Assembly (NCBI GenBank): GCA_905178155.1
Contig: CAJINV010000034.1
Span: 1 to 64,000, forward strand
From: Amoebophrya sp. A120
Lineage: Eukaryota; Protista; Dinoflagellata
Reading direction: 5' to 3'
DNA: 64,000 bases
The translations under genes and the position numbers were made by a program. Positions 681 to 62,390 of this stretch are shown here, one piece after another. Each line of letters begins with the position of its first letter. Position 1 is the first letter of the stretch. The notes under the pieces were generated by a model that ran no database searches, had not been told where the DNA came from, and saw nothing but the letters and a program-made list of their open reading frames with translations.

Positions 681-803
681 CTGCTGTGGGAAGAAGCAAA
701 GGCACAGCAGCTTGCTTCTAGAGTCTGCTTCGGGGTGGCGTGTTGTTTGCAGATCACAAGCCCCTGATCCCCTCCCAGACAAAAAACCTTCCAACTTCCA
801 TAC

Positions 804-3800
804 CCCGACTACCTGTCCGGCTGCCACTGGCAACACGCAGTGAAGCTCCGGTTTGACAAATGTTCAGAACGAGAAGTCGACATGGACGCGTCTATTCTCA
901 AAGAGAACAACCTACCGGAGGACGGGAGGTATTTTGAACAGGTCACGGAATTTTTCAACGAGACGGATGAGAACGGAACGGTGCTTTTCACCTACAACGT
1001 GACGAAGATGGTCCGGATTTTCAACGAGTCCGATTCTCATGATTCCGGTATCCCCTGTTGGCGGGATAGAAAGATTCCCAGAAGGCTCTACAACGAACAC
1101 AGCCAATATGCTGCGAAAAAAATTGCCGGAAACAAGAAATTCCCGCCGGGAGTCTTCGAGGATTTCGAGCAGAATTACATGGTAGTTCTAGAGAACGTCG
1201 ATGTGGAATGCAAGGGCCACAACTTCTGCATCCGCGATTTGGAGAAGATGTACTACACGCGAGTTCTCACCGACACGGAGGGAATCGAACCGAAGGAGAC
1301 GAGAAAGAACTTGCGCCGCTGCCCGCGTGCAAACATTCCGAACGACATGAACAAGGACGTCACTGCTTTCGCCGTTGGCGGCGGGATCGAAACAAGTGGG
1401 TATTCTCCGGAGGATCAGCGATTCTACAGCACGAGTGGGCTTTATGACAGTGCACAACTCCCCCTCGTCCATCTCATGTCTATAGCATGAACGGCAATAC
1501 AAGCATCAGCAAGAATGCCAGTTTTGCTTGACAAATTTCCATTGGATTCGGATTGTAGTGCAAGTGCTATTTGGGGGGCTACCAGAACTTGTCATGCAAA
1601 TAGTGCCAAGAGGCACAGCCCGGATTTGGGATTTTGCATGACAAACGAGGGGGAGTTGCGCACTCTTATAGGCTTTACAGCGAGGAATACGCGTCGGTTT
1701 TGGAAGTTTGTTGGGACTTTTACGATAAACAGCAAAACGCCCGGACGAACACGACAGGACTACATGAGAACACCATCGCGATATTCAGCCCCCACCACTG
1801 CCATCAGTCTTGCTGGAAGAACAATGTCGTCAGAGGGTTTGGTGTCTGCGAATCAACGAGTCCGAGCGGGAAGATCGCTTTCGACACAGAGACGAAGTTC
1901 GACCAGGTGCCGTTCTACTCGCCAGTGTCGGTTTCTTTTCAAAACCTGCAAGACAAATTCTACACGGACCGGAAAATTTACAATCAGGAAATTTCCGGCG
2001 CGCACAAATTCCGCGAGACCTGCTGGACGCATCCGACGAAGGAACGGATTGAATTCGACTCGCCGAAGGTGTTGGATTCGAGGCTGTTGCTGCCATTGAC
2101 TTCTCCCGGGGTCCGGGCTAGGAAGAAGGTGGAGAAAAAGCTAGAACTTCAGTACAAACTCCTCGTGCAGCCGTACGTGAAGTGCAACATCAGTTTAGAG
2201 GCGATTTTATGCATCGCAAATGTGTCTGGGTCTGGGAGGTTGCAACCTGTGACGCTGTTTTTGGATTCTAAAAAAATCTGTATTTTTGCATCGAGAGGTG
2301 GCCCTGCGCCACCCCTGAGCCACCCCTGGGCCACCCCTGGGCCACCCCTGAGCCACCCCTGGGCCACCCCTGGGCCACCCCTGAGCCACCCCTGGGCCAC
2401 CCCTGGGCCACCCCTGGGCCACCCCTGAGCCACCCCTGAGCCACCCCTGAGCCACCCCTGAGCCACCCCTGAGCCACCCCTGAGCCACCCCTGAGCCACC
2501 CCTGGGCCACCCCTGGGCCACCCCTGGGCCACCCCGGGGCCACGACTGAGCCACCCCGGGGCCACCCCGGGGCCACCCCTGGGCCACCCCTGGGCCACCC
2601 CTGAGCCACCCCTGAGCCACCCGTGCATCCTTCCATCCAGACCCAGACATATTTGCGGTCCATAGATAGGGATAACGGATTTTGTCTACAACAAAACCCT
2701 TTACGATTTGTTCCAAGTCGACGGGTCAAACGTGTCTATGAAGCACGAGGTGAACCGCCCGCTGTTCCGGTTCGCGATTGGGACTACGAAGTCGCAGATC
2801 GAGCAAATCCACAGCAATCTGACGACTTTGTTCCACATCGCGAACCTGACGGATTTCCAGCAGCAGCTGTACTCCACACCGTTGGAGGAGATTGCTGTGC
2901 CTGAAGCGTCGATCGCACGATTTTTCCAAAAGATGACGAGTACGACGACTACTACGTCGACTACCACCACGGTTCTGAACATCACGAACGTCACAAACGA
3001 AACAGATTCGGACGAGATTGGGTTTGGCGTAAATCGGAGCAACACGAGCAATGTTACGAATGTGAGTCTAAGGCAGTTGTTGCTAGAAGAGGAGCTTTTG
3101 GCGGGTGGCGGCGAACAAGAAGCTGCAGCAGCAGCTTCATCCTTCAAGCGGCTGTTGATGGGAATGGCTGGTGGTGTTGCACCAGGTTCGGGTAACGCGT
3201 CAGCATCTACTACTGCAGGACCTACATCCGAAGAGAAGGCTATTGCAATTCACAACGCGCAGCTGAGGAAAAAGTACAATGAGATGTTGCAAGCCTACAA
3301 CAACTTCACCATCGAGCACAACTCGCTATACAGACAGGCGAACGACTTCGTCATGCAGGTGTACAACAAGCTGATCGCTGATTTCGAAACCTTAGATGGT
3401 GGGAATTTCACCTACTACCTGCAAACGGCGATGCACGATAAGCAGCTGATGCCGACGAGTGAGATTGCGAAATCTTTGCCGATTGTGGATGTTTATGAGT
3501 TGTACTACAATTTGACGAAGACGTGGCAGCCGGACGCCTTGCTCTCCAACATCGACGAGTTTTACCGAACTTCTATGAGACAGAAAATTGCTTGCGTAGC
3601 CTACGCAGCGTAGGTGAAGATTTTTGTCATGCATGAGGAGCTTCCGCATCTAAAGGTAGTACCAGGGTCGGACCGGGGTCGGACCGGGGTCGGACCGGGG
3701 TGGGACCGGGGTCGGACCGGGGTGGGACCGGGGTCGGACCAAGGTCGGACCAAGGTCGGACCAAGGTCGGACCAAGGTCGGACCAAGGTCGGACCAAGGT

Positions 3801-6800
3801 CGGACCGGGGTCGAACCGAGGTCGGACCGGGGTCGGACCGGGGTCGGACCGGGGTAGGAACCAGGTAGGAACCGGGTAGGAACCAGGTAGGAACCAGGTA
3901 GGAACCAGGTAGGAACCAGGTAGGAACCAGGTAGGAACCAGGTAGGAACCAGGTAGGAGCCAGGTCGGACCAGGGTAGGACCGAGGTCGGACCGGGGTGA
4001 TGCCTGGCGTCCCATTGGGTTGGGAAGTTCGCACGTTTTTATGTGTGTCGCCGTATATCCATATCTGATTGCTTGTCGATGGATCGGCCTTTTGAATTGC
4101 CGGAAAGAATTCTATATATCTGTCACATGTACGCTACGCAAGCAATTTTCCCACCGATAGCCCACGACAACCTGATGGCGACCTACCTAAAAGAGCTGAA
4201 CTACGAGAAAACCCCAGCAGACGCCCAAGACCGCGGCTCCCTCTTCAGGAAGATTCTGGTCGGGCAAAAAGTGGAAGATTTGGTTCTTCACGGCCAGCTC
4301 TACGACTACCTGCCGCTCTTCATGGACGTTTTCGAAACCAACATCCAGCCGCTGTTCGTGGAGCACAGAAGGGATTTGGAAAATTCGCTAACCCAGTTAG
4401 TGAATTCTACAAAGACCACGGTCGAAGCGATATTGCGGCTGGACGTCTCGGACTCGAATGTGACTGCGACGAGTTCCTTTCAGACGCAAGTCATGACCGC
4501 GGAGCAGGATTTGGATAGCCGGATAGTGCTGTTGCGAGAGACCTATCATGGAAATCTGACAAATGTGGTAAAGCAGTCGCTGAACTTTTTGCAGCATGAG
4601 TTTAAAAAGGCAACAGAATTCGCAGCGGATGGCACCTACGACGACGTCTGGCGGGTGAACGAAGTGCACAACTTCCAGCAAACTTCGATTGGTATGAACG
4701 AGAACCGCGATGGGGTTTGTTACCTTTCCTCTTACCGCAAAGCCTACTTCTACGGGTTCGATTCGGGCAATTGTAATCTCGAGCTTCGCGAGTGCCACTG
4801 CGACAACTTGTGCAACGAGCGGAGACACAAGGACTGCTGCCTGAAGTGCATGCCGCAGGTGCAGCTGTCCGGGTCTGGCCTTCTTGCGGTGGAGGATGAC
4901 GAGGAGCTTCAGGACGTGTTTACGACAACTGCGAACGCTGCTGTCGCTGGTAGTAGTACCGCCGGAAGTAGTAGTGCAGCTTCGACGAGTGCAGCCGCTT
5001 CCTCGTCGACTTCTTTTAACTACGAAACTTCCTGCACGCTGTGGCGGCAGCGGATCCAGGAGCGGTTCCCGCGGTGTCAGCCCTACCTGTCCGTCGTCAA
5101 CTCGGAATTCATCGGGGGGAACCCCTTTGAGATGGATTTTGGTTACATCGTGTCGGACAACAGCACAGTCTGTTGGGAAGACGACACGCAGGCAGGGGCG
5201 GCTGATATCAAGCTGAAAAACGTGAGAATGGAAAACTGCGACAGTGGGCCAGACAACCAGTTCCACCAGACCAGTTTCTGTATCTCGGAACTGAAGCAAC
5301 TCCTTCACATCACCCAGTGCCGGGACTACACAGTGTACCCAGAGTCCGTCTGCATGTCGTTTCGTCCGAAGGAACAGTACCGGTTGGAAAGTGGAATTTC
5401 TTTGGAGGCAAATCCAGAAGCCTACGACATCATTCTCCAAGCGCCGCCGATGTGCATTGGAACGTGTTGGAAAGATTCCGTTTTGAAGGGGCCGAATTCC
5501 GCGGTGGACAAGATCACCGATCTATCAAAAGGAAAAATCCACCCTCCCCATACCAAAAAGAGGCACTCCTGAAAATTTGCGATGCTGATTTGTGACCCCA
5601 AATCCTCTCTGTGTTGCACGAGAGCAACGCCAGAGACTCCGCTGCGTTTTTCAGGCAATTTGTAATGCTGTATATCCTGCAGAGGATATGCCTACCTTGC
5701 TAGGTACGTACACCAAAACGCCCCTGCTCAGGCTGTGTGCCTACCTGCAGTCCCCCACTGCAACACAAAGTCTATTTGTGTACACAAATCCCGCATCACA
5801 GATTTTCATTTCGATATGGGGAAGGGGAATTTTTCCTTTTGATACGACCCAAAGCGGATCTGCATCCACCCGAGTGGGGTGCCGACAATTTGGTCAAGAC
5901 TCCCCGATTGGTGCTACGAGCCTTCGGTGACGTTTGGGAAAGAGTGGAGACTGGCGATTTACGACTCTGCGGGCACAACTAAGACGACCTGCGGACACAG
6001 TGTTTCCACAACCGGTGTGGCGAACACGCCGTCGATTCTAATCCAGGGATCGAACTCCCTGTCCTGCGTGAATTTAAGCGAAGCGCAACGTTTGTCCTTC
6101 GGGTTCTCTTCTCTAAAACTCCGGTCCTGCTTCGGGAAAAGAACTGCGCCAATGATATGGCTTGCTCAGGTGTTACAATCTCAAACATTACAATAGAATC
6201 TGGAATTCGTCTTGCATGAACAGCATGAGTACCATACAGAGACTTGGACTTTTCGCAATACAAATTTCGTCAGATTCTCATGGGGTTTTGGAGCTCCGAA
6301 ACTTGTCATGCGCGCTCCTTTGGGAGTAAGCCAGATGTTGCGCATATTGCAACACAAATTCCACATTCTATTGTAACGTTTGAGATTGTAACACCTGAGC
6401 GGGTTATAGATGACAGTAACGCAGTTGAACGGGACGGAGAATTTTGCAATAAGTAGTTCGAAGTTTCTGCCGCACGAAACTTACAACGGACAGTCCGCAT
6501 TTCAGTTCTTCAACGAGACAGACTGTAAAGGGAACACGGTAGTTTTGCACTACGAGAACAAAAAGTGCGAACCGTTGTTGCCGAACACGGTGACTGGGGA
6601 TGAGCAATACGGGATGTTTCCGGATTTGACGAACCTGCAACAGTACACCGAGTTCTTCGACACGCAAACATTGCTCCCCGGGCAGTTCCGATCGGCGGTA
6701 AATACGAGGCAGGCGAAGGAACTGACGATCATGGCGACGTGTGAACCGGAACTGTTCGAAGGGGAAGTGATCGGGACAAGTGGAAAACAAGTCCTCCCTG

Positions 6801-9800
6801 GTCGCAACATGGACAAACTAGTTTTCTTCGAGGACGCAAGCACTTTGATGCCGCTATTGACTGACGAAGGAGATTTATCAAAGAAAAAAACTGTGTAAGT
6901 GTAAGTCTGTGATGCAGAAAATGCAAAACAGTTACGCGTGTCATGCTCCACATGCATGGTAGGCTCGTTTCCTACGTGTTTTCCCGTCGTATCCACGCAT
7001 GACAAGTTTTTCCTGTCACGGCAGACAAACTTGTGATGCTGTTTTCCCAAAAGACGAAGACCTACACGAACACAGTTTTTTTCTTGGATAAGATTTCATT
7101 GCTGTAGACAATCAGGAAAGGAACACTATGGAGCAAACAGTCGAGCTAGTCCGCGTTTCTCAATTCGGGGAAACAACCACAACCACTCCAAGTCCGGAAA
7201 TTGTCAAGGAGCACCTGTCCTATGATTTCGACCCTGCGGGTAAAACCTTCGGGAAGAATTTGCGGTTCCAGCACGTTTACTCAGTACCCGATTTGCAGCA
7301 AATCACGCATGGGTACGAGCCCTGCCTACCCGAGTACAATAGTATGCTGCAGTCGAAGAATTTGGCGAAAATTTGGAAGAACCCGGCTTACCAGGACGTG
7401 CCCAGCCAGGACTGGCGAATCGAGATTTTCCAGCAAGATTTAACCTCCACCTGCATGAAGAACGCGAACACTGCTGACCCAGCAGATCCGGAGCGGATTC
7501 AAAATTCTCGGTCTGGACCTTTACGGGCCCAGTCCGGTGATGTGTGCATCAATTTACCGGTACAATATCACGATTTGATTGGGTGGAAGTCTGTTTCTGT
7601 CTCTTCCTGCAACGAGCAGAATGTAGGTTCGTACATCTTCTACCAGTATTTGAACTGCCAGGGGGTTGTGACAAAGGAGATGTTTGGTGTTACCCCAGCG
7701 ATTGAATCTGGTGTTGCTTGTGACGATGGGGTTGCGAGTAGAATCCCGGTTTCTAGTCTAGTGGATGAGGAACACGAGAAGCCGGTGCGGGTGGTGGAGG
7801 AGTGTGTGATATCAAAAGGAAAAATCCCCCCTCCCCATATCAAAAGGGCATGCTTGAGAAAATCTGTGATGCTGATTTGTGTTCACAAATCGCGTCTCTC
7901 TTGCAATAGAGCAAAGTCAAAGAGTCCGCCGCATTTCCCAGGCGGTCTGTAATGCTGATACGCCAACAGGGCACACGTCTGCCTTGCCAAGCGTCTACCT
8001 CAAGCCACCCCTTTCCAGGCTTTGTATCTGGCTGCTGTCCTCTAGTGCAAGACAAAGCGGATTTGTGTACACAAATCCCGCATCACAGATTTGCGTTTCG
8101 ATATGGGGAGGGGGGACTCTTCCTTGCGATATGTGATTGAGGAGGTTTTCATCCCGCACAACTTCACGGATGAGGACTCGGCAGCGGGGGTTGTTGGTGC
8201 AGGAGATTTCGCCGACAACACGACAAATATGACGAACGAAACCAATGTGACAAATGGGACAGAGGAAGAAGTGAATGAAACCAGCACGACAAGTTCATCC
8301 GGAAGTTCAAGTTCTGGTATGGTCAGTGGAGGTTCATCATCTTCCAGCTCCGGAGCAGTGACATCAAGCTCGGAAGACAACAGCACGAGCACTATGACCA
8401 ACAGTTCCAACGACACCAACGCGACTAATGGCACGGACGAAAGTTCTGATGCGGTGACGCAAACAGACGGCGGTCCTGCCGGCTACGTCCAAACCGGGTA
8501 CTATGTGAACCAAACGATCTGCCGAAACGTCTCCCGCCCGCAGATCTTTCAAATCACGGCCGCGTGTGTGCACAATCCCGCTGGTTTCACCCCGGAGGTC
8601 AGAACCGAGTTTGAGATGCGGGCCAGGGAGGTGTTCTACACAGAAGTGAGGACGGAGGTGACGGATTTTTTGGTCGAAGTTCCGACTTTCGACATGGAAT
8701 ACGCCGAGGAGTACAGTGTTGAGTACGCAGCAGATGCTGCTGAGAACGCAACAGATGCAAACGGTACGAACGGAACAGGCTCAGCTTCGAACGGAACTAG
8801 GGTCATGCGGCTGGTGAATGGCACCCTATCGCAGAACGGAACCATCAATGAGACGCACTACAATTACAGCAACTACACGGTGGATTTGAACGACACGGTA
8901 ATGGTGAATACCAGCTACCAGAAAACCTACTTCTTCAACACGCAGGTTCACTACTCCTTCCCGATCGTCGAAGCCATTGACTGGCCGGACAGCAAGAAGG
9001 TTGCGGACATGAACGCGGAGTTTGATAAAGCTGAACGCGACGTCACCACGTTTTCCAACTACGAGCTCATCGCGTCTTTGGAGAATGAAATTTCACAAAG
9101 ACGTCAGAAGGTCTGCTGGCGCCCGATGGCGATTGCGGAAATTAAAGAGCAAAGTGACATTGTGAACAGTCAAAACAACGAGCGGTTTTTCAACGAGACA
9201 TCCAATCAGTACGAGTTTCCAGCGACTGATTTCCATCCGATGCCCAACCCGAGGATCTTAGACTTCGACAACCACACGATCGAATTCGTCGCGCCCGTGA
9301 AAATCGAGCCGAAGGTGGTGAGAACTGCGTTGACAAACGATGTAAATTCCTTCGAGCTCGCGTTTGAAATCACGGAGCCGAAGAAGTGTGATTCCGTGTT
9401 GGAACGGCTGTGCTACTGCGACGACGATTGTGTGAAGAGAAACGACTGCTGCTTCAAGTGTCAGCAGACCGAGCAGCTGCGGGACTGCGCGAACGACTGG
9501 CATACGCTCGTGAAGCAGAAATTCCCGAAATGTGAGAAAACTTCTGTCTTGAGCAATTGGCACGAAGACACGGCGGAGATTTTGCTGGATGGGAAGCCAT
9601 ACGGGGAATACAGACCGCCGGTCGCCGGTGCGAGCACGTCTTCATCCAGTCAGCGGCAAGATTTCATGCTCTCAAGTATGATGTACGAGTCGACCTTGGG
9701 TAGGAGGCGGGAAAGACAGCTCGCTGGACATGGTGCGCAATCTTCAACCCCTCCCGGGATGAATCTGCTGAACCCTGGCATTGCGCAGAACACGATTCCT

Positions 9801-54800: not shown

Positions 54801-57800
54801 GCCCAAAAGGGAGACTGGACAGACAAGAATCCGCTCGTGTTTAGCAGATTAGACAAACGCTGGCTGGGGGGCTGTGGCCGGGGCGAGGCCATTTGCGTCT
54901 TCCGGATCTGCTAAACAGGAGCGGACTCTTGTCCGCAAAGCTCTACTTTTGTGGCTTTTGGCCTTCCGCCCGTTTGTCTAATTTTGCCCAAAAGGGAGAC
55001 TGGACAGACAAGAATCCGCCCGTGTTTAGCAGATTAGACAAACGCTGGCTGGGCTGTCGCCGGGGCGAGGCTATTTGCGTCTTCTGGATCTGCTAAACAG
55101 GAGCGGACTCTTGTCCGCAGCGCTTCACTTTTGCGGCTTTTGGCCTTCCGCCCGTTTGTCTAATTTTGCCCAAAAGGGAGACTGGACAGACAAGAGTCCG
55201 CCCGTGTCTAGCAGATTAGACAAACGCTGGCTTGGTTGTGGCCGGGGCGAGGCCATTTGCGTCTTCTGGATCTGCTAAACAGCAGCGGACTCTTGTCCGC
55301 AAAGCTTCACTTTTGCGGTTTTTGGCCTTCCACCCGTTTGTCTAATTTTGCCCAAAAGGGAGACTAGACAGACGAGAATCCGCCCGTGTTCAGCAGATTA
55401 GACAAACGCTGGCTGGGCTGTGGCCGGGGCGAGGCCATTTGCGTCGCCTGGATCTGCTAAACAAGAGCGGACTCTTGTCCGCAAAGCTTCACTTTTGCGG
55501 TTTTTGGCCTTGCGCCCGTTTGTCTAATTTTGCCCAAAAGGGAGACTGGACAGACAAGAATCCGCCCGTGTTTAGCAGATTAGACAAACGCTGGCTGGGC
55601 TGTGGCCGGGGCGAGGCCATTTGCGTCTTCTGGATCTGCTAATCAGGAGCGGACTCCGGTCCGCAAAGCTTCACTTTTGCGGCTTTTGGCCTTCCGCCCG
55701 TTTGTCTAATTTTGCCCAAAAGGGAGACTGGACAGACAAGAATCCGCCCGTGTTAAGCAGATTAGACAAACGCTGGGGGGGCTGTGGCTGGGGCGAGGCC
55801 ATTTGCGTCTTCCGGATCTACTAAACAGGAGCGGACTCTTGTCCGCAAAGCTTCACTTTTGCGGCTTTTGGCCTTCCGCCCGTTTGTCTAATTTTGCCCA
55901 AAAGGGAGACTAGACAGACAAGAGTCCGCCCGTTTTTAGCAGATTAGACAAACGCTGGCTGGTCTGTGGCCGGGGCGAGGCCATTTGCGTCTTCTGGATC
56001 TGCTAAACAGGAGCGATATCTTGTCTGAAAGACTTCACTATTGCGGTTTTTGGTCTTCCACCCGTTTGTCTAATTTTGCCCAAATGGGAGATTAGACAAA
56101 CAAGAAACCGTTCCTGTTTAGCAGATTAGACAAACGCTGGCCGCTGGGTTGTGGCTGGAGCGAGGCCATCCGCGTCCTCTGAATCTGCTAAACAGGAGCG
56201 ATATCTTGTCTGAAAGACTTCACTTGTGCGGTTTTTGGCCTTCCACCCGTTTGTCTAATTTTGCCCAATTTGGAGATTAGACAAGCAAGAAACCGCTCCT
56301 GTTTAGCAGATTAGACAAACGCTGGCTGGGTTCTGGCTGGGGCGAGGCCATTTGCGTGCCCTGAATCTGCTAAACAGGAGCGGATTCGTGTCTGAAGGAC
56401 TTCACTTTTGCGGCTTTTGGCCTTCCGCCCGTTTGTCTAATTTTGCCCAAGAGGGAGACTAGACAGACAAGAGTCCGCCCGTGTTTAGCAGATTAGACAA
56501 ACGCTGGCTGGGCTGTTGCCGGGGCGAGGCCATTTGCGTCTTCTGGATCTGCTAAACAGGAGCGGACTTTGTCCGCAAAGCTTCACTTTTGCGGCTTTTG
56601 GCCTTCCGCCCGTTCGTCTAATTTTGCCCAAAAGGGAGACTAGGCAGACAAGAGTCCGCCCGTGTTTAGCAGATTAGACAAACGCTGGCTGGATTGTGGC
56701 CGGGGCGAGGCCATTTGCGTCTTCTGGATCTGCTAAACAGGAGCGGACTCTTGCCCGCAAAGCTTCACTTTTGCGCTTTTTGGCCTCTCGCCCGTTTGTC
56801 TAATTTTGCCCAAATGGGAGACTAGACAAACAAGAAACCGCTCCTGTTTAGCAGATTAGACAAACGCTGGCTGGGTTGTGGCTGGGGCGAAGCCGCTTGC
56901 GTTTTCTGAATCTGGTAAACAGGAGCGGACTCTTGCCTGAGAGACTTTACTTTTGCGGTTTTTGGCCTTCCACCCGTTTGTCTAATTTTGCCCAAATGGG
57001 AGACTAGACAAACAAGAAACCGCTCCTGTTTAGCAGATTAGACAAGTCCTGGCGGGGTTGTGCCGTGGGTGGGGGTAGTACCTGCGTCTTCTTCAGAAAG
57101 TACTTGATAGAAAAATTACAATCAGAAGTAGACAAGGTGAAACTGAAAATCATCAAAACAGCACACAACACATTACGCACACCATAATCTTCAGGTATCG
57201 GCGTTTTAAAACTTCCTGCGTCCACCTACCGTGGCCACTTTGTCTACGATGAATTCCACGGATTGGGCCTGATGTGCTGGAAAGCGGGTGTTGTGTACGG
57301 TGGAAACTGGAAACACAACGAGATGTTTGGCTGGGGCTCGTTACGGGTTCCGAGAAAGTACGTCTACAAGGGCCAATTCCTGAACAACGAAAGACACGGG
57401 TACGGGAGGTGCGAGTGGTTCGAGTCCGGGGAATATTATGAAGGCATGTGGGTGAACGGGAAAATGTATGACTTGCAAAACAAGTATCGTACTCGTATAA
57501 ATGCATTACGAATTTTATCACAGGGGCAAATGAATCACATTACAAATGAATCACCATACGGAAAAAAAAATTTTTCCAAGTACCGCAGTGCATGGCCCGG
57601 CTCGCACGCATAAGGTAGCGCCCAACATATCCAACCAAATAACCTGAGACACAGCGACGCTCGTCAGGAAAGTCGCGCCTTTCTCGATAAGGTTTGCGCT
57701 ATTTGGTTGGTGGCTACGGGGGACGAACGCAGTGGCCATGAGTGTATGCTGGGGCCATCCCGCCTGAATAGCTTGCAAACAACTCGGGGGAAGCATTCGC

Positions 57801-60800
57801 AACCCAAAATACCAAGCAAAAGCCCATTGCTAAAGATAGGGAAAACGACGCCACAAAACTGAAGTGATTACACCTCTATACCGTCGGGCGTAGCGTCCCG
57901 AGGGTGTCGCATTTTCTGAAAAAAGGTCAATTTTTGCCAAAAATTCATCTTTTTCGAGGCAAAAAAAGAGGTGTAATCACCTTGCGTTTTGTAGCTATCA
58001 ATTAGCCCTATGATTCATTTGACTCCTCCCGCTTAGTATCTGCTTGAATCACCTCTGCAAAAAGTCGCGACTTTTGGCATCAAATTGATGCCCGAAACGC
58101 GTCTTTTTCGCGTCAAATCACCCAAGCAGATATCAAGTGGGTTTGCGTTTTTTTTCGTCTGAAACAGGCTGAGCATCTCAAGTGATTACACCTCCACTGT
58201 TCCACTTCCGCCACTTGGTAACAGTAGAGTAGGGAAAAAGTAAGAATAATACGCCAGTAGCACCATGCGGGGTAACATTATGCACCACGGTATGACGCTT
58301 TGGGGTTGGTCTTGGGGTATCTTCTATGACATGTTCTGCGCACTACATCTCGCAGTCTTTTCCTTACCAAAATGCGACGCCTGGGGCTTTTGGTCGCAGC
58401 CTTCTCAAGCATTCGCCCACTGCAATCTACCGACCAGCTGTGTCTGGCGCGGGGAAAAAAGCTGCAGGCGCTACGGCAGTTGGGGACGCTCCGAATTTTT
58501 TTTTTTTTCGGCCCTATGATTCTTTTGAAAGTGATTTACTTGCTCCTTTGATAAATTTCCTCAGCATGAGAAATGAGATTTGCAATGCGGATTTACGTTT
58601 AAGAAAAAGATTTGTGATGCATGACTGCAATTACTACAAGTGCGATACTTTTGCACAGGATAGAATGCACGGGCCTGGGCTGTACGGAACGGAGCGGGTA
58701 AGTGCGATTTGGAATTGGAACGAAGGGACCATGGGAAGTTTGCTACACAAACTCCCGTCTTCGGTTATCGGAGGGCCAGTGCAGTTGGTGGTGCTGGAGG
58801 CTCCGAGGTAGAGGTTTTGTCTTCTTGGTCTTCTTGCATCATGACAAAAATTTGTTTGAGTGCCTGTTTTGCAATACAAGTTTAACACCTACCACTCAAC
58901 GTTCAAAAACCAAAAACTATCAGGCGCGTCCCGGAGCTCCAGGCATCGTACAAGCAGCTCTCCACGCTTCTATGAATTGCAAAAGTATCGTACTAGCATA
59001 AATTGCATTACAAATTTGCTCAGCACGAGAGCTGGAATTTGTCATGCTGTTTCACCTTGAGGACAAGATTTGTCATGCATAATTGCAATCAGTATGATTA
59101 CGATACTTTTGCACAGGATAGCTTCTCACCCGCTACCACGTCTCCGCCGAATCAGCGAGGTCAAGTTCCCAACAAATGCTCTCCGCCATGGGGTCACCGA
59201 CGAGCCGGCACCGGTCCATGTCACCGAGACTGACCTACTCCAGCAGCATATCCTGAGTAAAAATGTCCTCACCCCCCCAGGGTTGTCATGCAAATCTGCA
59301 TGCCAAAGTAAGCCAAAAAAGTCTCTCATGCGGAGCCACATGAGAACCATTTTCTAATCCTGTTTTGGAATTTGTGATGCTAGAATCAGCATGATATGCT
59401 ACATCTGTGATGCTTCGGAACTAGCTAAACAGGAATACACTACGAGGATAAAAACCTTGTCATACGAAACAACCAGAGGTGGCTGATTTGTCTAGCGGAT
59501 TTCCCATCTTGACTCTGGTGTGGTAACATTTTTGCTCAGGATACAGCAGACCGGGGACTTCTTCTGAGCAGTTGATGCTCACTACCTACGGGTCCGCGGG
59601 CACCGCCGACTCGCAGTATCCTGTGCAAAAGTATCGTACTCGTATTGCAATCATGCATGACAAATCTTTATCTTAAGGTAAATCTGTATCTGCATTACAA
59701 ATTTTATCTCTCATGCTGAGGAAATTTGTAATGCATTTATACGAGTACGATACTTTTGCAAAGCATACGCAGAACCAAGCTACCACGGTGAGCAAGAAGT
59801 TCATATCAAATGTAAAAATGTCTGGGTCTGGAAGAATGCAACTTGTGATGCTGCATTTGGATTCCAAAAAAATCTGTATTGCATGAGTACCGAAGGGAGC
59901 GCAAGTTTTTGCTACGCTGAGAAGGCATTTGTCATGCGGAATAGGCATCAAGAAGCTCTCAAAAAATCTGTGATGCTAGGGTATGCATCACAGACATCAT
60001 GGCTCATGCAAAACGTGCATGACGAATCTCGCAATCTTCCAGACCCAGACATTTTTACAGTTGATAGTTCATGAACGTGAGCAATTTGCACGGGGTGCGG
60101 AACGCACATTCAATGTCCCCGTCGCAAAGAGAAACGATCCGGAAAGCGGTGACAAGTGGTGCGGCGAGTTCCAGTAGGCACGATTTTCAGTACAGCACGA
60201 GAACTGGGGTATCTTCGACGGGAGAGGATTCGCAGATGGAGCTCTACGACGGTCCGGAAGTGTTCGGCGGGAAGACTTCCACATTGGCAGACCGATACGC
60301 AAGACAGATCGACACGAACCGGAGTCAGTCACCAAGGTATAGCAGCCCGCACGATACAACCGGCGGAGGGAACAACGATACCGGTGGATCGGCGCGGAAG
60401 ACGCAGAAGAAGGACCTGAAACCGCCAACGTATCTTTTGATATTGAATAAATGTGTTGCGAAATAAACGCATGGCATGACAAACTGTGTTTCCACATCAT
60501 AGTGCAAAATTTCGCATGACAAAATCACTTCCAAAAATGATTTCTATCAGCCTCGACACGCAAAAAGCCCGGGACAAGATAACGCCTGCGATTCAGGACC
60601 AAATGGGCGCGGACGTACCGCCAAGACCGGGATCGTTATCCATTGCAAAAGTATCGTACTGACTTTAACTAGTAGAAGTAGCATCACAAATTCGATGGTC
60701 AGGAGCATGAAAAATGGAATTTGTAAAGCTGGTTAGAGTACATCAAACATTGACCTGTAATGCGTGACTGCCATTATTACCACGAGTACAAGGTATTTTT

Positions 60801-62390
60801 GCCGTGCATACTCCCCCGGGAAGGACAGCAAGCTTTCCAAAGACAGCAAGTCCAATTTCCCAGACCCGCCAGCTCTCATCCATATCGCAAGAAAAAAGTG
60901 TTACAGTTACACATTGTGTTGCAGGAGCAGCAACACAGACAACCTTTCTCATGCAGAAAATGCTTGCGAGCCTCGTTTTCTTCCTGTTTTCCCTTATGAT
61001 CTTCGCATATACAAGTTTTCTCTGCCACATCACAGAGAGAATTCGTGATGCAGAAACTCCAACAAATGTGTAACTGTAGCACTTTTTTCTCGTGATAATC
61101 CAGTTCCTCCCATTAGAACGGTACGAGCAGCATCACCCTCTGGACTGCATCCACAACAACGCATTGTGTAAGTTCGACCTGGATTTGGAGTGCGAAATTG
61201 ATTTCCCGCAGTGGGGCTTCCGAGTCGGAAACCCGTTTGTGTGGTCGGGATCGAAGGTGAAGGACTGTTTGGTAATAACGGAGATCTATGGCACGGAAAC
61301 CGCAAATCCAAACCCCAACGCCGCCCCGTTCCCGGGTGGGCCGGTGCTGGCGATGGGGCCCCTGCGGCAGTGGAACTTAGACCACTGCGGGGACAGCGGG
61401 ATGAAAGGGATTGGCGTGTCGACGGTGGCGAGCAGTAGTGCGAGGTATAAACTACTTACTCAAGAGAGGACTCGTTCGGTTGCATTAGAAAAAGACTTTG
61501 TCATTCACGAAGATGCATACCTAATTGCAGGAGCAAGTGCAGCTTTTCAAGTTGAAAGAAATCCATCCAGTACCAAAAATCCCCCTTCAGGTCACCAAGA
61601 AGAGGCTCCTCTCCGAAGAACAGTAACAAGACCGCACCAACTTCCCAACCGAAGAAACAAATCGTCCAGAATACCTGGCCGATTAAGAAATTCGCGAGAA
61701 TAGTTTCCGTCAACGGAGTTACAAAGGATTTGGTCCGGATGCTGAAGTTGCTCTCCATGGCCACACGGGATCTGAAGCTCGGGATTGTAAACTCCGCGTT
61801 TGTGAAATCCTACGAAGGGTCGGGAGAGAAGCTATCCGACGGCACCATCGCGGAACTGCCGATGATATGCATTGCAAAGTATCGTACTCTTCGTATGAAT
61901 TGCATTACAAATTAGGTCAGCATGCCAAACGGAATTCGTCATGCTGCTTCACCTTCGGAAGGAGATTTGTCATGCATATCTGCAATGAGTACGAGTGCGA
62001 TAGTTTTGCAATGTATAGATGGCGCCGGGAGAGGAGTACGAGCGGGACGAAAAACAAGGCACGATGAAGAGAAGAAAGAAGAAGGAACAGCTTGCGTTGA
62101 CGGACGGTAGCGGCAAGGGCGGAGCAAAGAAGAGACAGCAGAGTAGAGACAGCAGGCCCGACAGTCCGAAATCGCTGGAGGATAAGAAAAGACCATTAGC
62201 GATAGAAGACCAACATCGCAGGAACCCGCCCCCGGGAAGTAGCAGCTCGAGTAACGCAAACGGCCCACCAGCGCCACCGCGGGGAGCACACTCCAGGGCG
62301 CGGCAAGAGCAGCAGGGTGGCCGGGAAAGGAGCGATAGACGGCGGGACAAGATCCGGCCCGATTTTTTTGAGGACGCGGAGGAGGTGTGA
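804..62390 (+). CDS. Giant multi-exon single-pass membrane protein (about 10,837 aa in window, 5' end upstream); fibrocystin-L/PKHD1L1-like core with SMB-like, C-type lectin, EGF, TSP1, sushi-like, TM, MORN and PDZ-like regions; 92 exons in window
   Basis: Successive + strand ORF segments join in frame when each of 91 introns is removed; joined length 32,514 nt is divisible by 3; ends ...FFEDAEEV* at 62390; motifs run across junctions (e.g. GNWSDPNSWPNKYVPV|DGEDVYI, WQIGPWG|LCTY, GK|MHGPG). Confidence 0.85.
1443..1670. mobile_element. Introner family D (TIR TATGAnAGTGCACAACTCCCCCTC)
   Basis: TSD ggctt/ggctt; removing 233 nt restores frame. Confidence 0.9.
2208..2664. mobile_element. Introner family A (TIR TAT-N7-AAAwATGTCTGGGTCTGG), minisatellite-filled
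   Basis: TSD gattt/gatag; -462 nt keeps frame. Confidence 0.85.
2305..2622. repeat. 11-bp minisatellite GCCACCCCTG(A/G) inside a family A introner
   Basis: Direct reading. Confidence 0.95.
3574..4159. mobile_element. Introner, singleton, minisatellite-filled
   Basis: IR gaaaattgcttgcgtagc; TSD decayed (acttc/gccca); -591 nt keeps frame. Confidence 0.75.
3662..4000. repeat. 11-bp minisatellites GGTCGGACC(GG/AA) and GGTAGGAACCA inside an introner
   Basis: Direct reading. Confidence 0.95.
5523..5844. mobile_element. Introner family C (TIR TAT-N7-AAAATCCCCCCTCCCCAT)
   Basis: TSD cgatc/cgacc; -327 nt. Confidence 0.9.
6156..6408. mobile_element. Introner, singleton (IR gctcaggtgttacaatctcaaac)
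   Basis: TSD aatga/gatga; -258 nt. Confidence 0.9.
6876..7090. mobile_element. Introner family E (TIR TAT-N6-AAAAAA(C/G)TGT)
   Basis: TSD agatt/agatt; -220 nt. Confidence 0.9.
7810..8131. mobile_element. Introner family C
   Basis: TSD tgtga/tgtga; -327 nt. Confidence 0.9.
9912..10759. mobile_element. Degenerate introner filled with 99-bp satellite
   Basis: Weak IR tatg...aattatgcc; no TSD; -853 nt fits frame. Confidence 0.6.
9975..10660. repeat. 99-bp tandem repeat, about 7 copies, intronic
   Basis: gcgggcgtacaacctcggaaaacc unit; 33-aa periodicity in the ORF track. Confidence 0.95.
11020..11344. mobile_element. Introner family C
   Basis: TSD gacag/gacag; -330 nt. Confidence 0.9.
11392..11597. 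mobile_element. Introner family E
   Basis: TSD tgcat/tgcat; -211 nt. Confidence 0.9.
11785..12013. mobile_element. Introner family D
   Basis: TSD tactg/gactg; -234 nt. Confidence 0.9.
12078..12397. mobile_element. Introner family C
   Basis: TSD ttcgg/tttgg; -325 nt. Confidence 0.9.
13130..13279. mobile_element. Introner family B (TIR TAT-N4-TGCAAAAGTATCGTACTCG)
   Basis: TSD gcgga/gcgga; -155 nt. Confidence 0.9.
13458..13686. mobile_element. Introner family D (extra ATA at right end)
   Basis: Flanks gcaac/gtcaac; -234 nt keeps frame. Confidence 0.8.
13767..13975. mobile_element. Introner family E
   Basis: TSD aaata/aaata; -214 nt. Confidence 0.9.
14339..14977. mobile_element. Degenerate introner filled with 166-bp satellite
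   Basis: IR tatggaag...aacttt; flanks cactg/ccccg; -644 nt fits frame. Confidence 0.7.
14445..14885. repeat. About 166-bp tandem repeat, about 2.6 copies, intronic
   Basis: tgaaacacgagcg at about 14447, 14613, 14779. Confidence 0.9.
15084..15362. mobile_element. Introner family F (TIR TATCCTGnnCAAAAACGTCCCCA)
   Basis: TSD ctaca/ctaca; -284 nt. Confidence 0.9.
15431..15580. mobile_element. Introner family B
   Basis: TSD gtgct/gtgct; -155 nt. Confidence 0.9.
15654..15926. mobile_element. Introner family A
   Basis: TSD ctgtc/ctgtc; -278 nt. Confidence 0.9.
15994..16225. mobile_element. Introner family A
   Basis: TSD gatga/gatga; -237 nt. Confidence 0.9.
16259..16403. mobile_element. Introner family B
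   Basis: TSD aaaag/aaaag; -150 nt. Confidence 0.9.
16947..17204. mobile_element. Introner family A
   Basis: TSD ctccg/ctccg; -263 nt. Confidence 0.9.
17692..18015. mobile_element. Introner family C
   Basis: TSD acgct/gcgct; -329 nt. Confidence 0.9.
18670..18937. mobile_element. Introner family A
   Basis: TSD cccgt/gccgt; -273 nt. Confidence 0.9.
20094..21031. mobile_element. Degenerate introner filled with 139-bp satellite
   Basis: Imperfect extended IR (ggggagg...tcgctaa); no TSD; -943 nt fits frame. Confidence 0.65.
20160..20935. repeat. About 139-bp tandem repeat, about 5.6 copies, intronic
   Basis: ggaaaacgaagtcaaaa recurs about every 139 nt. Confidence 0.9.
21199..21463. mobile_element. 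Introner family A
   Basis: TSD tcgcc/tcgcc; -270 nt. Confidence 0.9.
22182..22398. mobile_element. Introner family D
   Basis: TSD agctt/agctt; -222 nt. Confidence 0.9.
22668..22919. mobile_element. Introner family A
   Basis: TSD ctggc/ctggc; -257 nt. Confidence 0.9.
23070..23219. mobile_element. Introner family B
   Basis: TSD caaag/caaag; -155 nt. Confidence 0.9.
23291..23776. mobile_element. Introner family A with nested insertion
   Basis: TSD aacgg/aacga; -491 nt. Confidence 0.9.
23453..23662 (+). mobile_element. Nested 210-bp insertion with (CTA)n tail, SINE-like or truncated non-LTR element
   Basis: 8-bp direct repeat aattaggt at 23445-23452 and 23663-23670; empty site in the sister copy at 34894-35158. 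Confidence 0.7.
24025..24287. mobile_element. Introner family A
   Basis: TSD acgtg/acgtg; -268 nt. Confidence 0.9.
24447..24599. mobile_element. Introner family B
   Basis: TSD agttg/agttg; -158 nt. Confidence 0.9.
25820..26852. mobile_element. Degenerate introner filled with 142-bp satellite
   Basis: Imperfect IR tatgg...aaaag..ttt.gtt; no TSD; -1038 nt fits frame. Confidence 0.65.
25865..26770. repeat. About 142-bp tandem repeat, about 6 copies, intronic
   Basis: agctcggctaaagggctcagggacc recurs about every 142 nt. Confidence 0.9.
27816..27960. mobile_element. Introner family B
   Basis: TSD actac/accac; -150 nt. Confidence 0.9.
28180..28388. mobile_element. Introner family E
   Basis: TSD tccga/tccga; -214 nt. 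Confidence 0.9.
28730..29020. mobile_element. Introner family F
   Basis: TSD tgaaa/tgaaa; -296 nt. Confidence 0.9.
29527..29704. mobile_element. Introner, singleton; in-frame and stop-free
   Basis: IR tatgga.gg.gaatttg / caaattcaccatgcata; internal gcatgacaaa and tttgtcatgc; -183 nt. Confidence 0.7.
29759..29918. mobile_element. Introner family B
   Basis: TSD ggtgg/ggtgg; -165 nt. Confidence 0.9.
30563..31526. mobile_element. Introner family A with nested element
   Basis: TSD gtggc/gtggc; -969 nt. Confidence 0.9.
30750..31435. mobile_element. Nested 686-bp non-autonomous element with TGT...ACA termini
   Basis: TSD catg (30746-30749 / 31436-31439); imperfect TIR tgt..gttc..gg..ccccgg; empty site gggcatgcatc at about 47035. 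Confidence 0.75.
31612..31872. mobile_element. Introner family A
   Basis: TSD tcgag/tcgaa; -266 nt. Confidence 0.9.
32877..33131. mobile_element. Introner family A
   Basis: TSD gaact/gaact; -260 nt. Confidence 0.9.
33342..33499. mobile_element. Introner family B (left end TAA)
   Basis: TSD gcaca/gcaca; -163 nt. Confidence 0.85.
34894..35158. mobile_element. Introner family A
   Basis: TSD agtca/agtca; -270 nt. Confidence 0.9.
35250..35505. mobile_element. Introner family A
   Basis: TSD ggcct/tgcct; -261 nt. Confidence 0.9.
35543..36083 (+). other. G8 domain (split by an introner)
   Basis: WSDPNSWPNKYVPVDGEDVYIENYMSIVLDVNSTAKLGRLSVHGELIF...IYIGAKGVFRAGT resembles the G8 domain of PKHD1/CEMIP. 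Confidence 0.75.
35591..35852. mobile_element. Introner family A
   Basis: TSD gtgga/gtgga; -267 nt. Confidence 0.9.
36085..36244. mobile_element. Introner family B
   Basis: TSD ttgga/ctgga; -165 nt. Confidence 0.9.
38355..38562. mobile_element. Introner family E
   Basis: TSD ccgat/cggat; -213 nt. Confidence 0.9.
38637..38920. mobile_element. Introner family A
   Basis: TSD tcacg/tcacg; -289 nt. Confidence 0.9.
39434..39578. mobile_element. Introner family B
   Basis: TSD gaaat/gaaat; -150 nt. Confidence 0.9.
39630..39884. mobile_element. Introner family A
   Basis: TSD gagtt/gagct; -260 nt. Confidence 0.9.
40239..40403. mobile_element. Introner family B (divergent)
   Basis: TSD tcgcg/ttgcg; -170 nt. 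Confidence 0.85.
40774..40928. mobile_element. Introner, singleton (IR aaatttccc/gggaaattt)
   Basis: TSD agatt/agatt; -160 nt. Confidence 0.85.
41038..41363. mobile_element. Introner family C
   Basis: TSD tacca/cacca; -331 nt. Confidence 0.9.
41683..41945. mobile_element. Introner family A
   Basis: TSD cgggg/cgggg; -268 nt. Confidence 0.9.
42006..42222. mobile_element. Introner family D (opposite orientation to 22182)
   Basis: TSD ggatt/ggatt; -222 nt. Confidence 0.9.
42507..42761. mobile_element. Introner family A
   Basis: TSD gactg/gactg; -260 nt. Confidence 0.9.
42870..43018. mobile_element. Introner family B
   Basis: TSD aacga/aacga; -154 nt. Confidence 0.9.
43401..44415. mobile_element. 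Introner family F with about 730-bp nested insertion
   Basis: TSD tggct/tgggt; -1020 nt. Confidence 0.9.
43509..44240. mobile_element. Nested GC-rich insertion (boundaries approximate)
   Basis: Absent from sister copies at 15084 and 28730; 11-bp IR gtagtgaggtc (43510-43520) / gacctcactac (44202-44212). Confidence 0.6.
44634..44970. mobile_element. Introner family C
   Basis: TSD ggcga/ggcga; -342 nt. Confidence 0.9.
45302..45494. mobile_element. Introner, singleton (IR tatcacacag; E-like)
   Basis: TSD tcgcg/tcgcg; -198 nt. Confidence 0.9.
46115..46435. mobile_element. Introner family C
   Basis: TSD tcttc/ttttc; -326 nt. Confidence 0.9.
46550..46801. mobile_element. Introner family A
   Basis: TSD ggagt/ggagt; -257 nt. 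Confidence 0.9.
46861..47124. mobile_element. Introner family A
   Basis: TSD cttcg/tttcg; -269 nt. Confidence 0.9.
47564..47815. mobile_element. Introner family A
   Basis: TSD tcgtg/tcgtg; -257 nt. Confidence 0.9.
47878..48026. mobile_element. Introner family B
   Basis: TSD tggcg/tggcg; -154 nt. Confidence 0.9.
48141..48301. mobile_element. Introner family B
   Basis: TSD agaac/agaac; -166 nt. Confidence 0.9.
48816..49210. mobile_element. Introner family D with nested insertion
   Basis: TSD cgagt/cgagt; -400 nt. Confidence 0.9.
49027..49169. mobile_element. Nested 143-bp insertion with 15-bp target duplication
   Basis: catgacaaatgcggg at 49012-49026 and 49170-49184. Confidence 0.7.
49253..49424. 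mobile_element. Introner, singleton (perfect IR tatgcaagacaaaaa)
   Basis: TSD decayed (gccgg/ttcca); -177 nt keeps frame. Confidence 0.8.
49924..50111 (+). other. Atypical intron (apparent GG...AG, 188 nt)
   Basis: Needed to join CERC to PPESSNYW; in-frame stops inside; no clear TIR or TSD. Confidence 0.6.
50470..50684. mobile_element. Introner family E (right end ATG)
   Basis: TSD gaaca/caaca; -220 nt. Confidence 0.85.
50745..50914. mobile_element. Introner family B (divergent)
   Basis: TSD aaagg/caagg; -175 nt. Confidence 0.8.
50966..51220. mobile_element. Introner family A
   Basis: TSD ccact/ccact; -260 nt. Confidence 0.9.
51497..51647. mobile_element. Introner family B (right end ACA)
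   Basis: TSD gctct/gctct; -156 nt. Confidence 0.9.
51842..52097. mobile_element. Introner family A
   Basis: TSD gcttt/acttt; -261 nt. Confidence 0.9.
52388..52583. mobile_element. Introner family E
   Basis: TSD gatct/gatct; -201 nt. Confidence 0.9.
52718..52951. mobile_element. Introner family D
   Basis: TSD gcaga/gcaga; -239 nt. Confidence 0.9.
53016..53265. mobile_element. Introner family A
   Basis: TSD tgaag/tgaag; -255 nt. Confidence 0.9.
53785..54052. mobile_element. Introner family A
   Basis: TSD cacaa/tccaa; -273 nt. Confidence 0.9.
54147..54215 (+). other. Transmembrane helix
   Basis: GLFFGLIGAASAIFVGVVGFLIY follows a Thr-rich stalk and precedes a charged segment. Confidence 0.8.
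54392..54656. mobile_element. Introner family A
   Basis: TSD tcgca/tcgca; -270 nt. Confidence 0.9.
54700..57194 (+). other. Canonical GT-AG intron (2495 nt) filled with 182-bp satellite
   Basis: CATG|gtactt...cttcag|GTATC gives KHGIG in a MORN repeat. Confidence 0.85.
54745..57060. repeat. About 182-bp tandem repeat, 12-13 copies, inside a GT-AG intron
   Basis: cccgtttgtctaattttgcccaaaaggg recurs about every 182 nt; internal inverted motifs gtttgtctaat/attagacaaac. Confidence 0.95.
57467..58662. mobile_element. Introner family B hosting a nested 1-kb element
   Basis: TSD aaatg/gaatg; -1201 nt gives VNGKMHGPG. Confidence 0.9.
57516..58553. mobile_element. Nested 1038-bp TAT...ATA element with long (40-60 bp) imperfect TIRs
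   Basis: TSD aattt/aattt; tatcacaggggcaaatgaatcac vs reverse complement tatcaaaggagcaagtaaatcac; removal regenerates the family B consensus. Confidence 0.9.
58808..58923 (+). other. Canonical GT-AG intron (116 nt)
   Basis: AG|gtagag...tatcag|G; frame confirmed by a downstream exon open only in the predicted frame among those tested. Confidence 0.75.
58971..59120. mobile_element. Introner family B
   Basis: TSD gcttc/gcttc; -155 nt. Confidence 0.9.
59249..59543. mobile_element. Introner family F (opposite orientation to 28730)
   Basis: TSD cagca/cagca; -300 nt. Confidence 0.9.
59617..59767. mobile_element. Introner family B
   Basis: TSD cgcag/cgcag; -156 nt. Confidence 0.9.
59804..60066. 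mobile_element. Introner family A
   Basis: TSD gttca/gttca; -268 nt. Confidence 0.9.
60430..60550 (+). other. Canonical GT-AG intron (121 nt)
   Basis: AC|gtatct...tatcag|C; frame consistent. Confidence 0.75.
60637..60810. mobile_element. Introner family B (divergent)
   Basis: Flanks atcgt/ctccc; -179 nt fits frame. Confidence 0.8.
60883..61097. mobile_element. Introner family E
   Basis: TSD atcca/atcca; -220 nt. Confidence 0.9.
61210..61790 (+). other. PDZ-like domain (tentative)
   Basis: WGFRV...LVITEI...GPLRQWN...ARIVSVNG...MLKLL pattern. Confidence 0.4.
61445..61590 (+). other. Canonical GT-AG intron (146 nt)
   Basis: AG|gtataa...cttcag|G; joins to the ORF ending at the next introner. 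Confidence 0.75.
61866..62017. mobile_element. Introner family B
   Basis: TSD gatga/gatgg; -157 nt. Confidence 0.9.

Follow-up and report, generated by a model that had tools for sequence, protein, structure and literature searches.

The window analysed here is a stretch of 64,000 nucleotides (nt) from Amoebophrya sp. A120 (contig CAJINV010000034.1, positions 1 to 64,000), in which one very long gene is interrupted by 86 elements with TAT...ATA ends and by five GT-AG introns. Removal of each element plus 5 nt, together with the five GT-AG introns, yields one stop-free frame of 10,804 codons. This frame is lost when 4 or 6 nt are taken in place of 5 at any single element (86/86), and retaining any single element breaks it in 84 of the 86 cases. 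Retention brings neither a stop nor a frameshift at 15994-16225 and 29527-29704; at 29527, the alignment with the homologs crosses the junction and shows no insertion there. An initial annotation of the window had claimed that removal of element plus 5 nt restores the frame, which is correct, but the five GT-AG introns, which it did not mention, must also go. It had also described one intact gene. A single frame does run from 807 to 62390, but no start codon for the gene was found within the window, and thus the gene is 5'-incomplete here and starts upstream. A model of several genes separated by satellites, with apparent stops at 20120 and 25848, was rejected, since the satellites proved to be internal to elements and the frame continues past them.

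The elements, which extend from 1443 to 62017, were found by a scan for TAT...ATA pairs followed by a walk along the reading frame, so that TAT and ATA served as search criteria. Their termini are TAT..ATA in 83 of 86, with one case each of TAA..ATA, TAT..ATG and TAT..ACA. The 5-bp duplications carry 0, 1, 2, 3, 4 and 5 mismatches in 52, 23, 3, 2, 4 and 2 elements, respectively, and the element lengths modulo 3 are distributed 26/37/23. G directly follows ATA in 29 elements, against about 30 in the initial annotation, whose other counts (86 elements, 52 perfect and 23 one-mismatch duplications) all reproduce. TAT..ATA pairs with a perfect duplication and a terminal inverted repeat (TIR) matching at 12/20 positions or better number 49 in the window and 0-1 per block shuffle (n=30). 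The inverted repeat carries TAT in 85/86 5' arms and A at positions 11, 12 and 13 in 74, 82 and 75 of the 86 elements. The elements have TIRs and a fixed-length duplication, and the open reading frames (ORFs) of three long elements gave no Pfam match. Relatives at full length, up to 95.7% identical, exist for 69/86 elements in the fetched loci of a second assembly, JACKZZ01. Moreover, DNA depth (run X1) reaches 1e4-1e5 over element-holding bins versus ~43 for unique contigs, showing that the families are repeated genome-wide. The elements are best explained as non-autonomous copies of inverted-repeat transposons, similar to miniature inverted-repeat transposable elements (MITEs), sitting in exons of Amoebophrya sp. 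A120.

The GenBank protein CAD7974801.1 (P0002; Amoebophrya sp. A120) is 100% identical to the translation over 283 amino acids and spans the junction of element 38355-38562. For the searched 700-amino-acid exon, the NCBI-sourced matches were this 283-amino-acid partial protein and a 106-amino-acid piece of the 10,804-codon frame. The identity establishes that the window is A120 DNA and therefore that the elements are the A120 introners of Farhat et al. 2021. The initial annotation had made this assignment, and both the protein and the published inverted-repeat motif (TAT + 7 nt + AAA) bear it out.

Removal takes place at the RNA level. Run X1 behaves as DNA (contigs at ~43 depth), and its contigs run through the exon-element borders unchanged, with no other letters. 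Runs X5-X7 come from one sample of one study; their assignment as RNA is a software guess, and their contigs behave as spliced mRNA. Between 57100 and 63900, all 11 joints were found in all three of these runs: 8/8 elements were skipped as element plus 5 nt, along with three GT-AG introns. A 6,424-nt contig equals the model base for base at each listed checkpoint from 48358 to 63469, a span that holds elements 67-86 and the five GT-AG introns; spans holding several elements were checked in sum only. Transcript contigs thus cover 20/86 elements, and one more is spanned by the GenBank protein. For the remaining elements (66 outside the contig span), removal is supported by the frame, the homologs, the GenBank protein and short contigs. 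Raw reads of X8 and X9 matched only as 90-99% repeats without exon cover and were not used. We conclude that the elements are removed from transcripts with the net loss of one duplication. As expected from the initial annotation, the covered elements are skipped rather than retained, and cryptic GT-AG junctions away from the TIRs are not used.

A perfect duplication lets the junction slide, and thus only decayed duplications place the cut. Two junctions could be placed exactly (Table 1). At 60637-60810, the duplication reads ATCGT/CTCCC; at 49253-49424, it reads GCCGG/TTCCA, and here the cut was deduced from the coordinates of the contig record (48809 = record 452, 49429 = record 495), in which the short middle piece is not listed. 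Four further sites set bounds. At 61866-62017 (GATGA/GATGG; 61861-62022), the transcript retains the right-hand fifth base (joint 61860/62018, slide 4), which excludes a cut at TAT itself (0/+5). Two conserved residues, the Pro at 29527 that both homologs share and the Cys of the repeat at 14339, each need four left-hand bases kept and disfavour registers with at least 2 nt on the left. A stop codon at 13458 speaks against registers that take 4-5 nt on the left. Both exactly placeable junctions thus give one register, N-TAT...ATA-NNNN, in which the intron takes in 1 nt upstream and 4 nt downstream of the element, and the four bounds agree with it. The claim that one target copy is removed is accurate as a net loss, but the cut splits the duplication 1+4.

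In the -1/+4 register, the donors are GT 27, AT 24, TT 24 and CT 11, and the acceptors include any dinucleotide, which gives 49 different end-dinucleotide pairs among the 86 elements. GT..AG occurs in 1/86 and AT..AC in 3/86, so that the ends are not those of U2 or U12 introns; even in any register, a G[TCA]..AG pair is available for 6/86 elements only. T+2, A+3 and A-7 are invariant (86/86). The donor dinucleotides had been called free: base +1 does come from the target, as do the last four bases of the intron, but position +2 is in every case the TIR's own T, and every donor reads N-T-A. Three natural end variants occur, at 33342 (TAA start) and at 50684 and 51647 (ATG and ACA ends); the latter two lie within the span matched by the transcript contig, and thus A-5 and T-6 are not strictly required. 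The base after the junction shows no purine bias (A 28, G 24, T 22, C 12). Table S4 of Farhat et al. lists an NT donor for all 9 predominant A120 non-canonical pairs and TT for all 9 of strain A25 (PMC7789003), and this table, the part of the source that bears on the point, agrees independently with the N-T donor of the -1/+4 register.

A 31-nt family-A terminus used as probe returned 125 loci in JACKZZ01 contigs, none of which overlaps the exons of the host gene. They hold 405 distinct elements, with a perfect 5-bp duplication in 301/405 and none of 4 or 6-9 bp. The coding frame was kept by removal of element+5 in 138 elements, of element+4 in 36 and of element+6 in 42. Oriented counts given below for this assembly refer to these 138 of 405 framed elements, the other 267 being omitted, and some pairs called decayed may be mispaired. 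The intron phases 0/1/2 in the -1/+4 register are uneven both in the window (40/15/31, p=0.004) and in the second assembly (67/30/41, p=0.0004), possibly through target preference or a frame-calling bias. Two signals seen in the window were not replicated: the synonymous excess among single mismatches (16/23, p 0.002-0.02, versus 13/25 with 9-12 expected), which was dropped, and the depletion of C at +1 (11/86 versus 32/138). One locus (L025:476-2934) holds an element of 2,459 bp whose ends are family-A-like and whose TTCCT duplication is perfect; on its minus strand lies an ORF of 415 codons. This ORF gave no Pfam, homolog or Atlas match, and the element is a candidate cargo-carrying or autonomous copy. 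No transposase for these elements was found in the 0.52 Mb searched, and the family-A terminus was not found in viral contigs.

Taken together, we favor a model in which the elements are excised by a U2-type spliceosome that has dropped the demand for G+1 and AG, with the inverted repeat uniting the two ends; we assign it a probability of roughly 0.55. Each insertion produced a 5-bp duplication, presumably by way of a transposase acting in trans. The mRNA retains the first four bases of the left-hand duplicate and the fifth of the right-hand one, as at the placed junctions, and the protein is thereby restored for any target and any element length. The 5' arm provides U+2, A+3 and U+4, the core of the host GTA(T) donors, which the spliceosome may recognize as such. 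The paired arms are predicted to keep the two ends close to each other, leaving overhangs of 1 nt (5') and 4 nt (3'), and may replace the pairing job of the undetected U1 small nuclear RNA (snRNA) as well as that of AG. The 3' cut would be set by the distance from the invariant A-7, a candidate branch point. Since the signals lie within the inverted repeat, both orientations work.

Among 76 short elements, folding predicts a TAT:ATA pair (p>0.5) for 60/76 and an inner stem for 68/76. Several observations support this model. The N-TAT donor core matches, at the level of sequence, the host's five GTA donors, and we count this, together with the invariant T+2, A+3 and A-7, for the spliceosome. 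G is found at +1 in 12/26 elements in which the two copies disagree at position 5 (p=0.04). On the intron side, decayed copies are rich in C (19/30 differing bases versus 5/30 on the exon side, p=0.0005; 12/26 versus 2/26 in the second assembly, p=0.004), and such C-rich intron ends resemble the host acceptors CCCCAG and CTTCAG. In the sections of Farhat et al. that deal with splicing, 83/89 spliceosomal proteins and the U2/U4/U5/U6 snRNAs are reported for A120 with U1 undetected, and the same repeats are reported in 15% of its canonical introns (PMC7789003). The initial annotation had proposed a precise excision unlike GT-AG rules. The near absence of GT..AG ends agrees with it; unlikeness to the U2 spliceosome is unsupported, the donor core being that of host GTA donors.

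Other points weigh against the model. A lariat, a branch point or spliceosome binding was seen in no result. The usual yUnAy branch context is absent around A-7 in most elements, no AG is present and the acceptor dinucleotides vary freely. Pairing of TAT with ATA would, as modelled, hide the donor from U6 unless unwound, and this pairing is not predicted for 20094-21031 and 57467-58662. G-U and A-C arm mismatches show no strand bias at positions 4-20 (82 vs 75; 92 vs 105), so that selection on RNA pairing was not detected; the counts at positions 17-24 (48 vs 29, p=0.04; 49 vs 32, p=0.07) were not counted. The G+1 signal is weak and comes from one of several tests, and with several tests run, p-values near 0.04 carry little weight. 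The invariance of the ends is partly built in by the TAT/ATA search. The exact register comes from two junctions in one sample of one study, in contigs, which hide minor registers. A codon-likelihood test on the second assembly gave no information on the register: its sum was near zero, position 5 favored the left copy in 9/15, against the model, and stop codons appeared solely with 0-2 bases retained on the left (2, 1, 1). Finally, Euglena stem-ended introns of similar geometry leave as circles in the accounts drawn on here (PMC12501133, PMC11282704).

The strongest competitor, which we consider possible though clearly second to the spliceosome, is a dedicated system that works without the spliceosome: it would read a terminal RNA stem, cut 1 nt and 4 nt outside it and ligate the exons, as proposed for Euglena, with TAT...ATA as the nuclease/ligase binding site. 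The fixed geometry without need of G+1 or AG, borne out by the 49 end pairs, and the function of symmetric signals in both orientations fit such a system, as do the predicted inner stem in 68/76 short elements, the undetected U1 snRNA (PMC7789003, in the part concerning snRNAs) and the Euglena signature N3CDG...CH'G N5-6, in which, in the sections consulted, the 3' overhang is 2-3 nt longer than the 5' one and the introns leave as circles (PMC12501133, PMC11282704). Positions 4-6 also pair better in old introns, 24/33 vs 119/225 (p=0.04, weak). However, the donor core is the same as in host GTA donors, old introns lean to G+1 and C-rich ends, G-U pairs show no strand bias, and no candidate enzyme was identified. 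Hybrid introns are, moreover, frequent in A120 (15% of its canonical introns), whereas the portions of the literature compared call them rare in Euglena. The initial annotation had favored stem reading by an excision system, which the negative test for RNA-pairing selection does not support. A possible reading, less likely than the spliceosome, is that the splicing code is free of target demands, a UAU/AUA-closed stem being measured (1 nt 5', 4 nt 3') and cut by non-standard machinery convergent with that of Euglena. If it were so, any transposon with such ends and a 5-bp duplication would be a perfect intron in either orientation, and for strain A25 one would expect, from this geometry (U+2 with A-5, A+3 with U-6), TTA...TAA plus 3 nt.

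It is improbable that a spliceosome reads short linear words only (5' N-UAU, 3' AUA-NNNN, an A-run and a U-run), the hairpin being a by-product of descent from a transposon. The lack of G-U/A-C bias agrees with such linear reading, as does 20094-21031, which has 11/20 arm matches and no predicted terminal pair, yet its exact removal is needed by the frame. However, TAT and ATA are too common to specify alone 86 exact cut pairs in 62 kb, and the predicted TAT:ATA pair is kept in 4/5 long singletons folded (3574, 9912, 14339, 25820). Least probable is excision from DNA in one life stage, in the manner of internal eliminated sequences, with the spliced contigs derived from a cleaned gene: the transposon-like ends and the loss of element plus one duplication do resemble precise DNA excision, but DNA contigs cross the exon-element borders unchanged (no DNA run of the expressing sample being among them), cutting occurs at 1/4, outside the inverted repeat, at decayed duplications too, and the element-free contigs also lack the GT-AG introns, which marks them as spliced RNA.

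BLAST clustering of the 86 elements gave groups of 27, 18, 8, 6, 6, 4 and 2 plus 15 singletons, with 65-92% identity. The final families A-F (28/21/8/7/8/4, plus 10 singletons), which agree with the initial annotation, were reached by placing strays by their termini, as judged by eye. Forward and reverse copies are about equal (family A 12/15, B 9/9, C 4/4). The transcript skips the whole 1,201 nt of 57467-58662 including the element nested in it, in which no clear coding ORF was seen. Tandem arrays lie inside 5/10 singletons. All tandem arrays of the window (unit 11 to 203 bp: 1-679, 2302-2622, 3666-3998, 9980-10661, 14446-14883, 20162-20952, 25869-26771 and 54751-57045) are intronic, mostly in older introns with decayed duplications. 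Four old singleton introns (14338-14981, 25819-26856, 29526-29708 and 49252-49428) start with GTATG, near a canonical donor. Two of these four share the end TTCCATACCCC with the cut-off intron at 806, and old element-derived introns may converge on a common end. Positions 1-806 are probably the tail of an 87th element-type intron, to judge by likeness to the ends of 14339-14977 and 25820-26852.

Table 1. Coordinates of the host gene, its introns and elements, and the exactly placed junctions in the window.
Feature	Coordinates	Strand	Remarks
Host gene	807-62390	+	92 exons, 32,415 nt, 10,804 codons; stop 62388-62390
GT-AG introns (5)	49925-50211, 54700-57194 (holds 182-bp satellite), 58808-58923, 60430-60550, 61445-61590	+	
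3' untranslated region	62391-63514	+	unspliced in transcript contigs
Exactly placed junction, T-TAT...ATA-CTCC (TT..CC)	60636-60814	+	element 60637-60810; joint 60635/60815, slide 0, in X5, X6, X7
Exactly placed junction, G-TAT...ATA-TTCC (GT..CC)	49252-49428	+	element 49253-49424; cut 49251/49429
Family A (28 copies)	2208-2664, 15654-15926, 15994-16225, 16947-17204, 18670-18937, 21199-21463, 22668-22919, 23291-23776, 24025-24287, 30563-31526, 31612-31872, 32877-33131, 34894-35158, 35250-35505, 35591-35852, 38637-38920, 39630-39884, 41683-41945, 42507-42761, 46550-46801, 46861-47124, 47564-47815, 50966-51220, 51842-52097, 53016-53265, 53785-54052, 54392-54656, 59804-60066	both	BLAST; 2208-2664 added by termini
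Family B (21 copies), first 14	13130-13279, 15431-15580, 16259-16403, 23070-23219, 24447-24599, 27816-27960, 29759-29918, 33342-33499, 36085-36244, 39434-39578, 42870-43018, 47878-48026, 48141-48301, 51497-51647	both	BLAST
Family B, last 7	57467-58662, 58971-59120, 59617-59767, 61866-62017, 40239-40403, 50745-50914, 60637-60810		first four by BLAST; last three added by termini
Family C (8 copies)	5523-5844, 7810-8131, 11020-11344, 12078-12397, 17692-18015, 41038-41363, 44634-44970, 46115-46435	4 forward, 4 reverse	BLAST
Family D (7 copies)	1443-1670, 11785-12013, 22182-22398, 42006-42222, 48816-49210, 52718-52951, 13458-13683		BLAST; 13458-13683 added by termini
Family E (8 copies)	6876-7090, 13767-13975, 28180-28388, 38355-38562, 50470-50684, 52388-52583; 11392-11597, 60883-61097		two BLAST groups (6 and 2), joined by termini
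Family F (4 copies)	15084-15362, 28730-29020, 43401-44415, 59249-59543		BLAST
Singletons (10)	3574-4159, 6156-6408, 9912-10759, 14339-14977, 20094-21031, 25820-26852, 29527-29704, 40774-40928, 45302-45494, 49253-49424		7 with decayed duplications
Nested TAT...ATA element, 1,038 bp	57516-58553		own perfect AATTT duplication; inside family-B element 57467-58662
Probable 3' part of 87th element-type intron	1-806	+	cut by window edge; 203-bp tandem array, then ...CATA-CCCC

The five GT-AG introns have GTA donors (5/5; GTAT in 3/5) and are confined to the final 12.5 kb of the gene, whereas its initial 49 kb contain element-type introns only. Introns 49925-50211 and 54700-57194 were placed via record coordinates, and 58808-58923, 60430-60550 and 61445-61590 were seen as contig joints. 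A candidate acceptor at 61530 for the last of them was excluded, as transcript contigs place the acceptor at 61590. The host protein carries the Pfam domains G8, C-type lectin, EGF/laminin-EGF and MORN repeats, as well as seven CxCDxxC..CC repeats and a low-complexity tail. A single strongly hydrophobic segment (54147-54222) precedes the MORN repeats, and the product is predicted to be a very large single-pass membrane or surface protein; a role in host attachment is a guess. Two homologs from environmental assemblies (P0004 and P0005) show 34-37% identity and are each co-linear over ~2,000 amino acids, across junctions 34-51. Longer homologs were sought and not found.

The element class, the organism and the open splicing question are already published (Farhat et al. 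2021), and the window is a real, unusually dense example of this known class that adds one useful refinement, the register. In the text of Farhat et al. on which we draw, more than 60% of Amoebophrya introns are spliced without GT-AG, and how this happens is left open (PMC7789003), one reason being that the duplications leave the junctions free to slide. A fixed rule, N-UAU...AUA-NNNN, would point to the A at -7 or -5 as candidate branch point, to the junction expected in a circle or a lariat and to the bases whose mutation would be telling. It would permit gene models to be built by rule, and it explains why these transposons can enter coding DNA at any site without harm to the protein.

The same portions of that paper define A120 introners by the inverted repeat TAT + 7 nt + AAA and a direct repeat of 3-5 nt at the exon/intron border, and call their splice sites variable or unknown (PMC7789003). 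The elements described here share with them this repeat, the direct repeats, the non-GT-AG junctions, the many families, the absence of a transposase inside and a length of ~250 nt, whereas the duplication here is strictly 5 bp and the register is -1/+4 where placeable. We did not find a fixed -1/+4 register with a strict 5-bp duplication in print, although figures of Farhat 2021 (Fig. 3, S19-S23) may show it by example. Gozashti et al. 2025 likewise report A120 introners in 58 families, with tens of introns in a single gene; the 2 rows seen among their 118 for Amoebophrya are both TIR DNA elements of unknown superfamily, and, unlike here, give mostly 'NC' splice sites, automated duplications of 3-4 bp and no fixed register (PMC12130899).

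Among other lineages, the introners of Micromonas, Aureococcus, Symbiodinium and Florenciella are also MITE-like, and their splicing restores the mRNA using part of the duplication; as described in the part of the study used here, they carry or co-opt GY/AG-type sites, so that the target is constrained, in contrast to the elements here (PMC9860276). Euglena nonconventional introns, in the published excerpts compared, resemble the present ones in terminal inverted and direct repeats, a fixed triplet a few bases inside each end, a 3' overhang longer than the 5' one and slidable junctions (PMC12501133, PMC11282704). However, their CAG/CTG lies at +4..6 and -8..-6 versus +2..4 and -7..-5 for TAT/ATA here (PMC12501133), and the elements of the window read N-TAT...ATA-N4 and lack the euglenid signature N3-CDG...CH'G-N5-6 followed by R. 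Euglena also needs a purine at the start of the next exon, shows circular products and is unrelated to Amoebophrya (PMC12501133, PMC11282704). The non-canonical introns of Fritillaria borealis likewise derive from transposons with TIRs and target-site duplications and are non-GT-AG. According to the sections cited, they prefer AG-AC and AG-AT ends, with U1 retained and U2AF duplicated, whereas here +1 and the last four bases are free; they are removed by an adapted U2 spliceosome (PMC11282704, PMC13326754). By analogy, Fritillaria borealis offers a precedent for a spliceosome adapting to such introns, and we count it in favor of excision of the A120 elements by a relaxed U2-type spliceosome.

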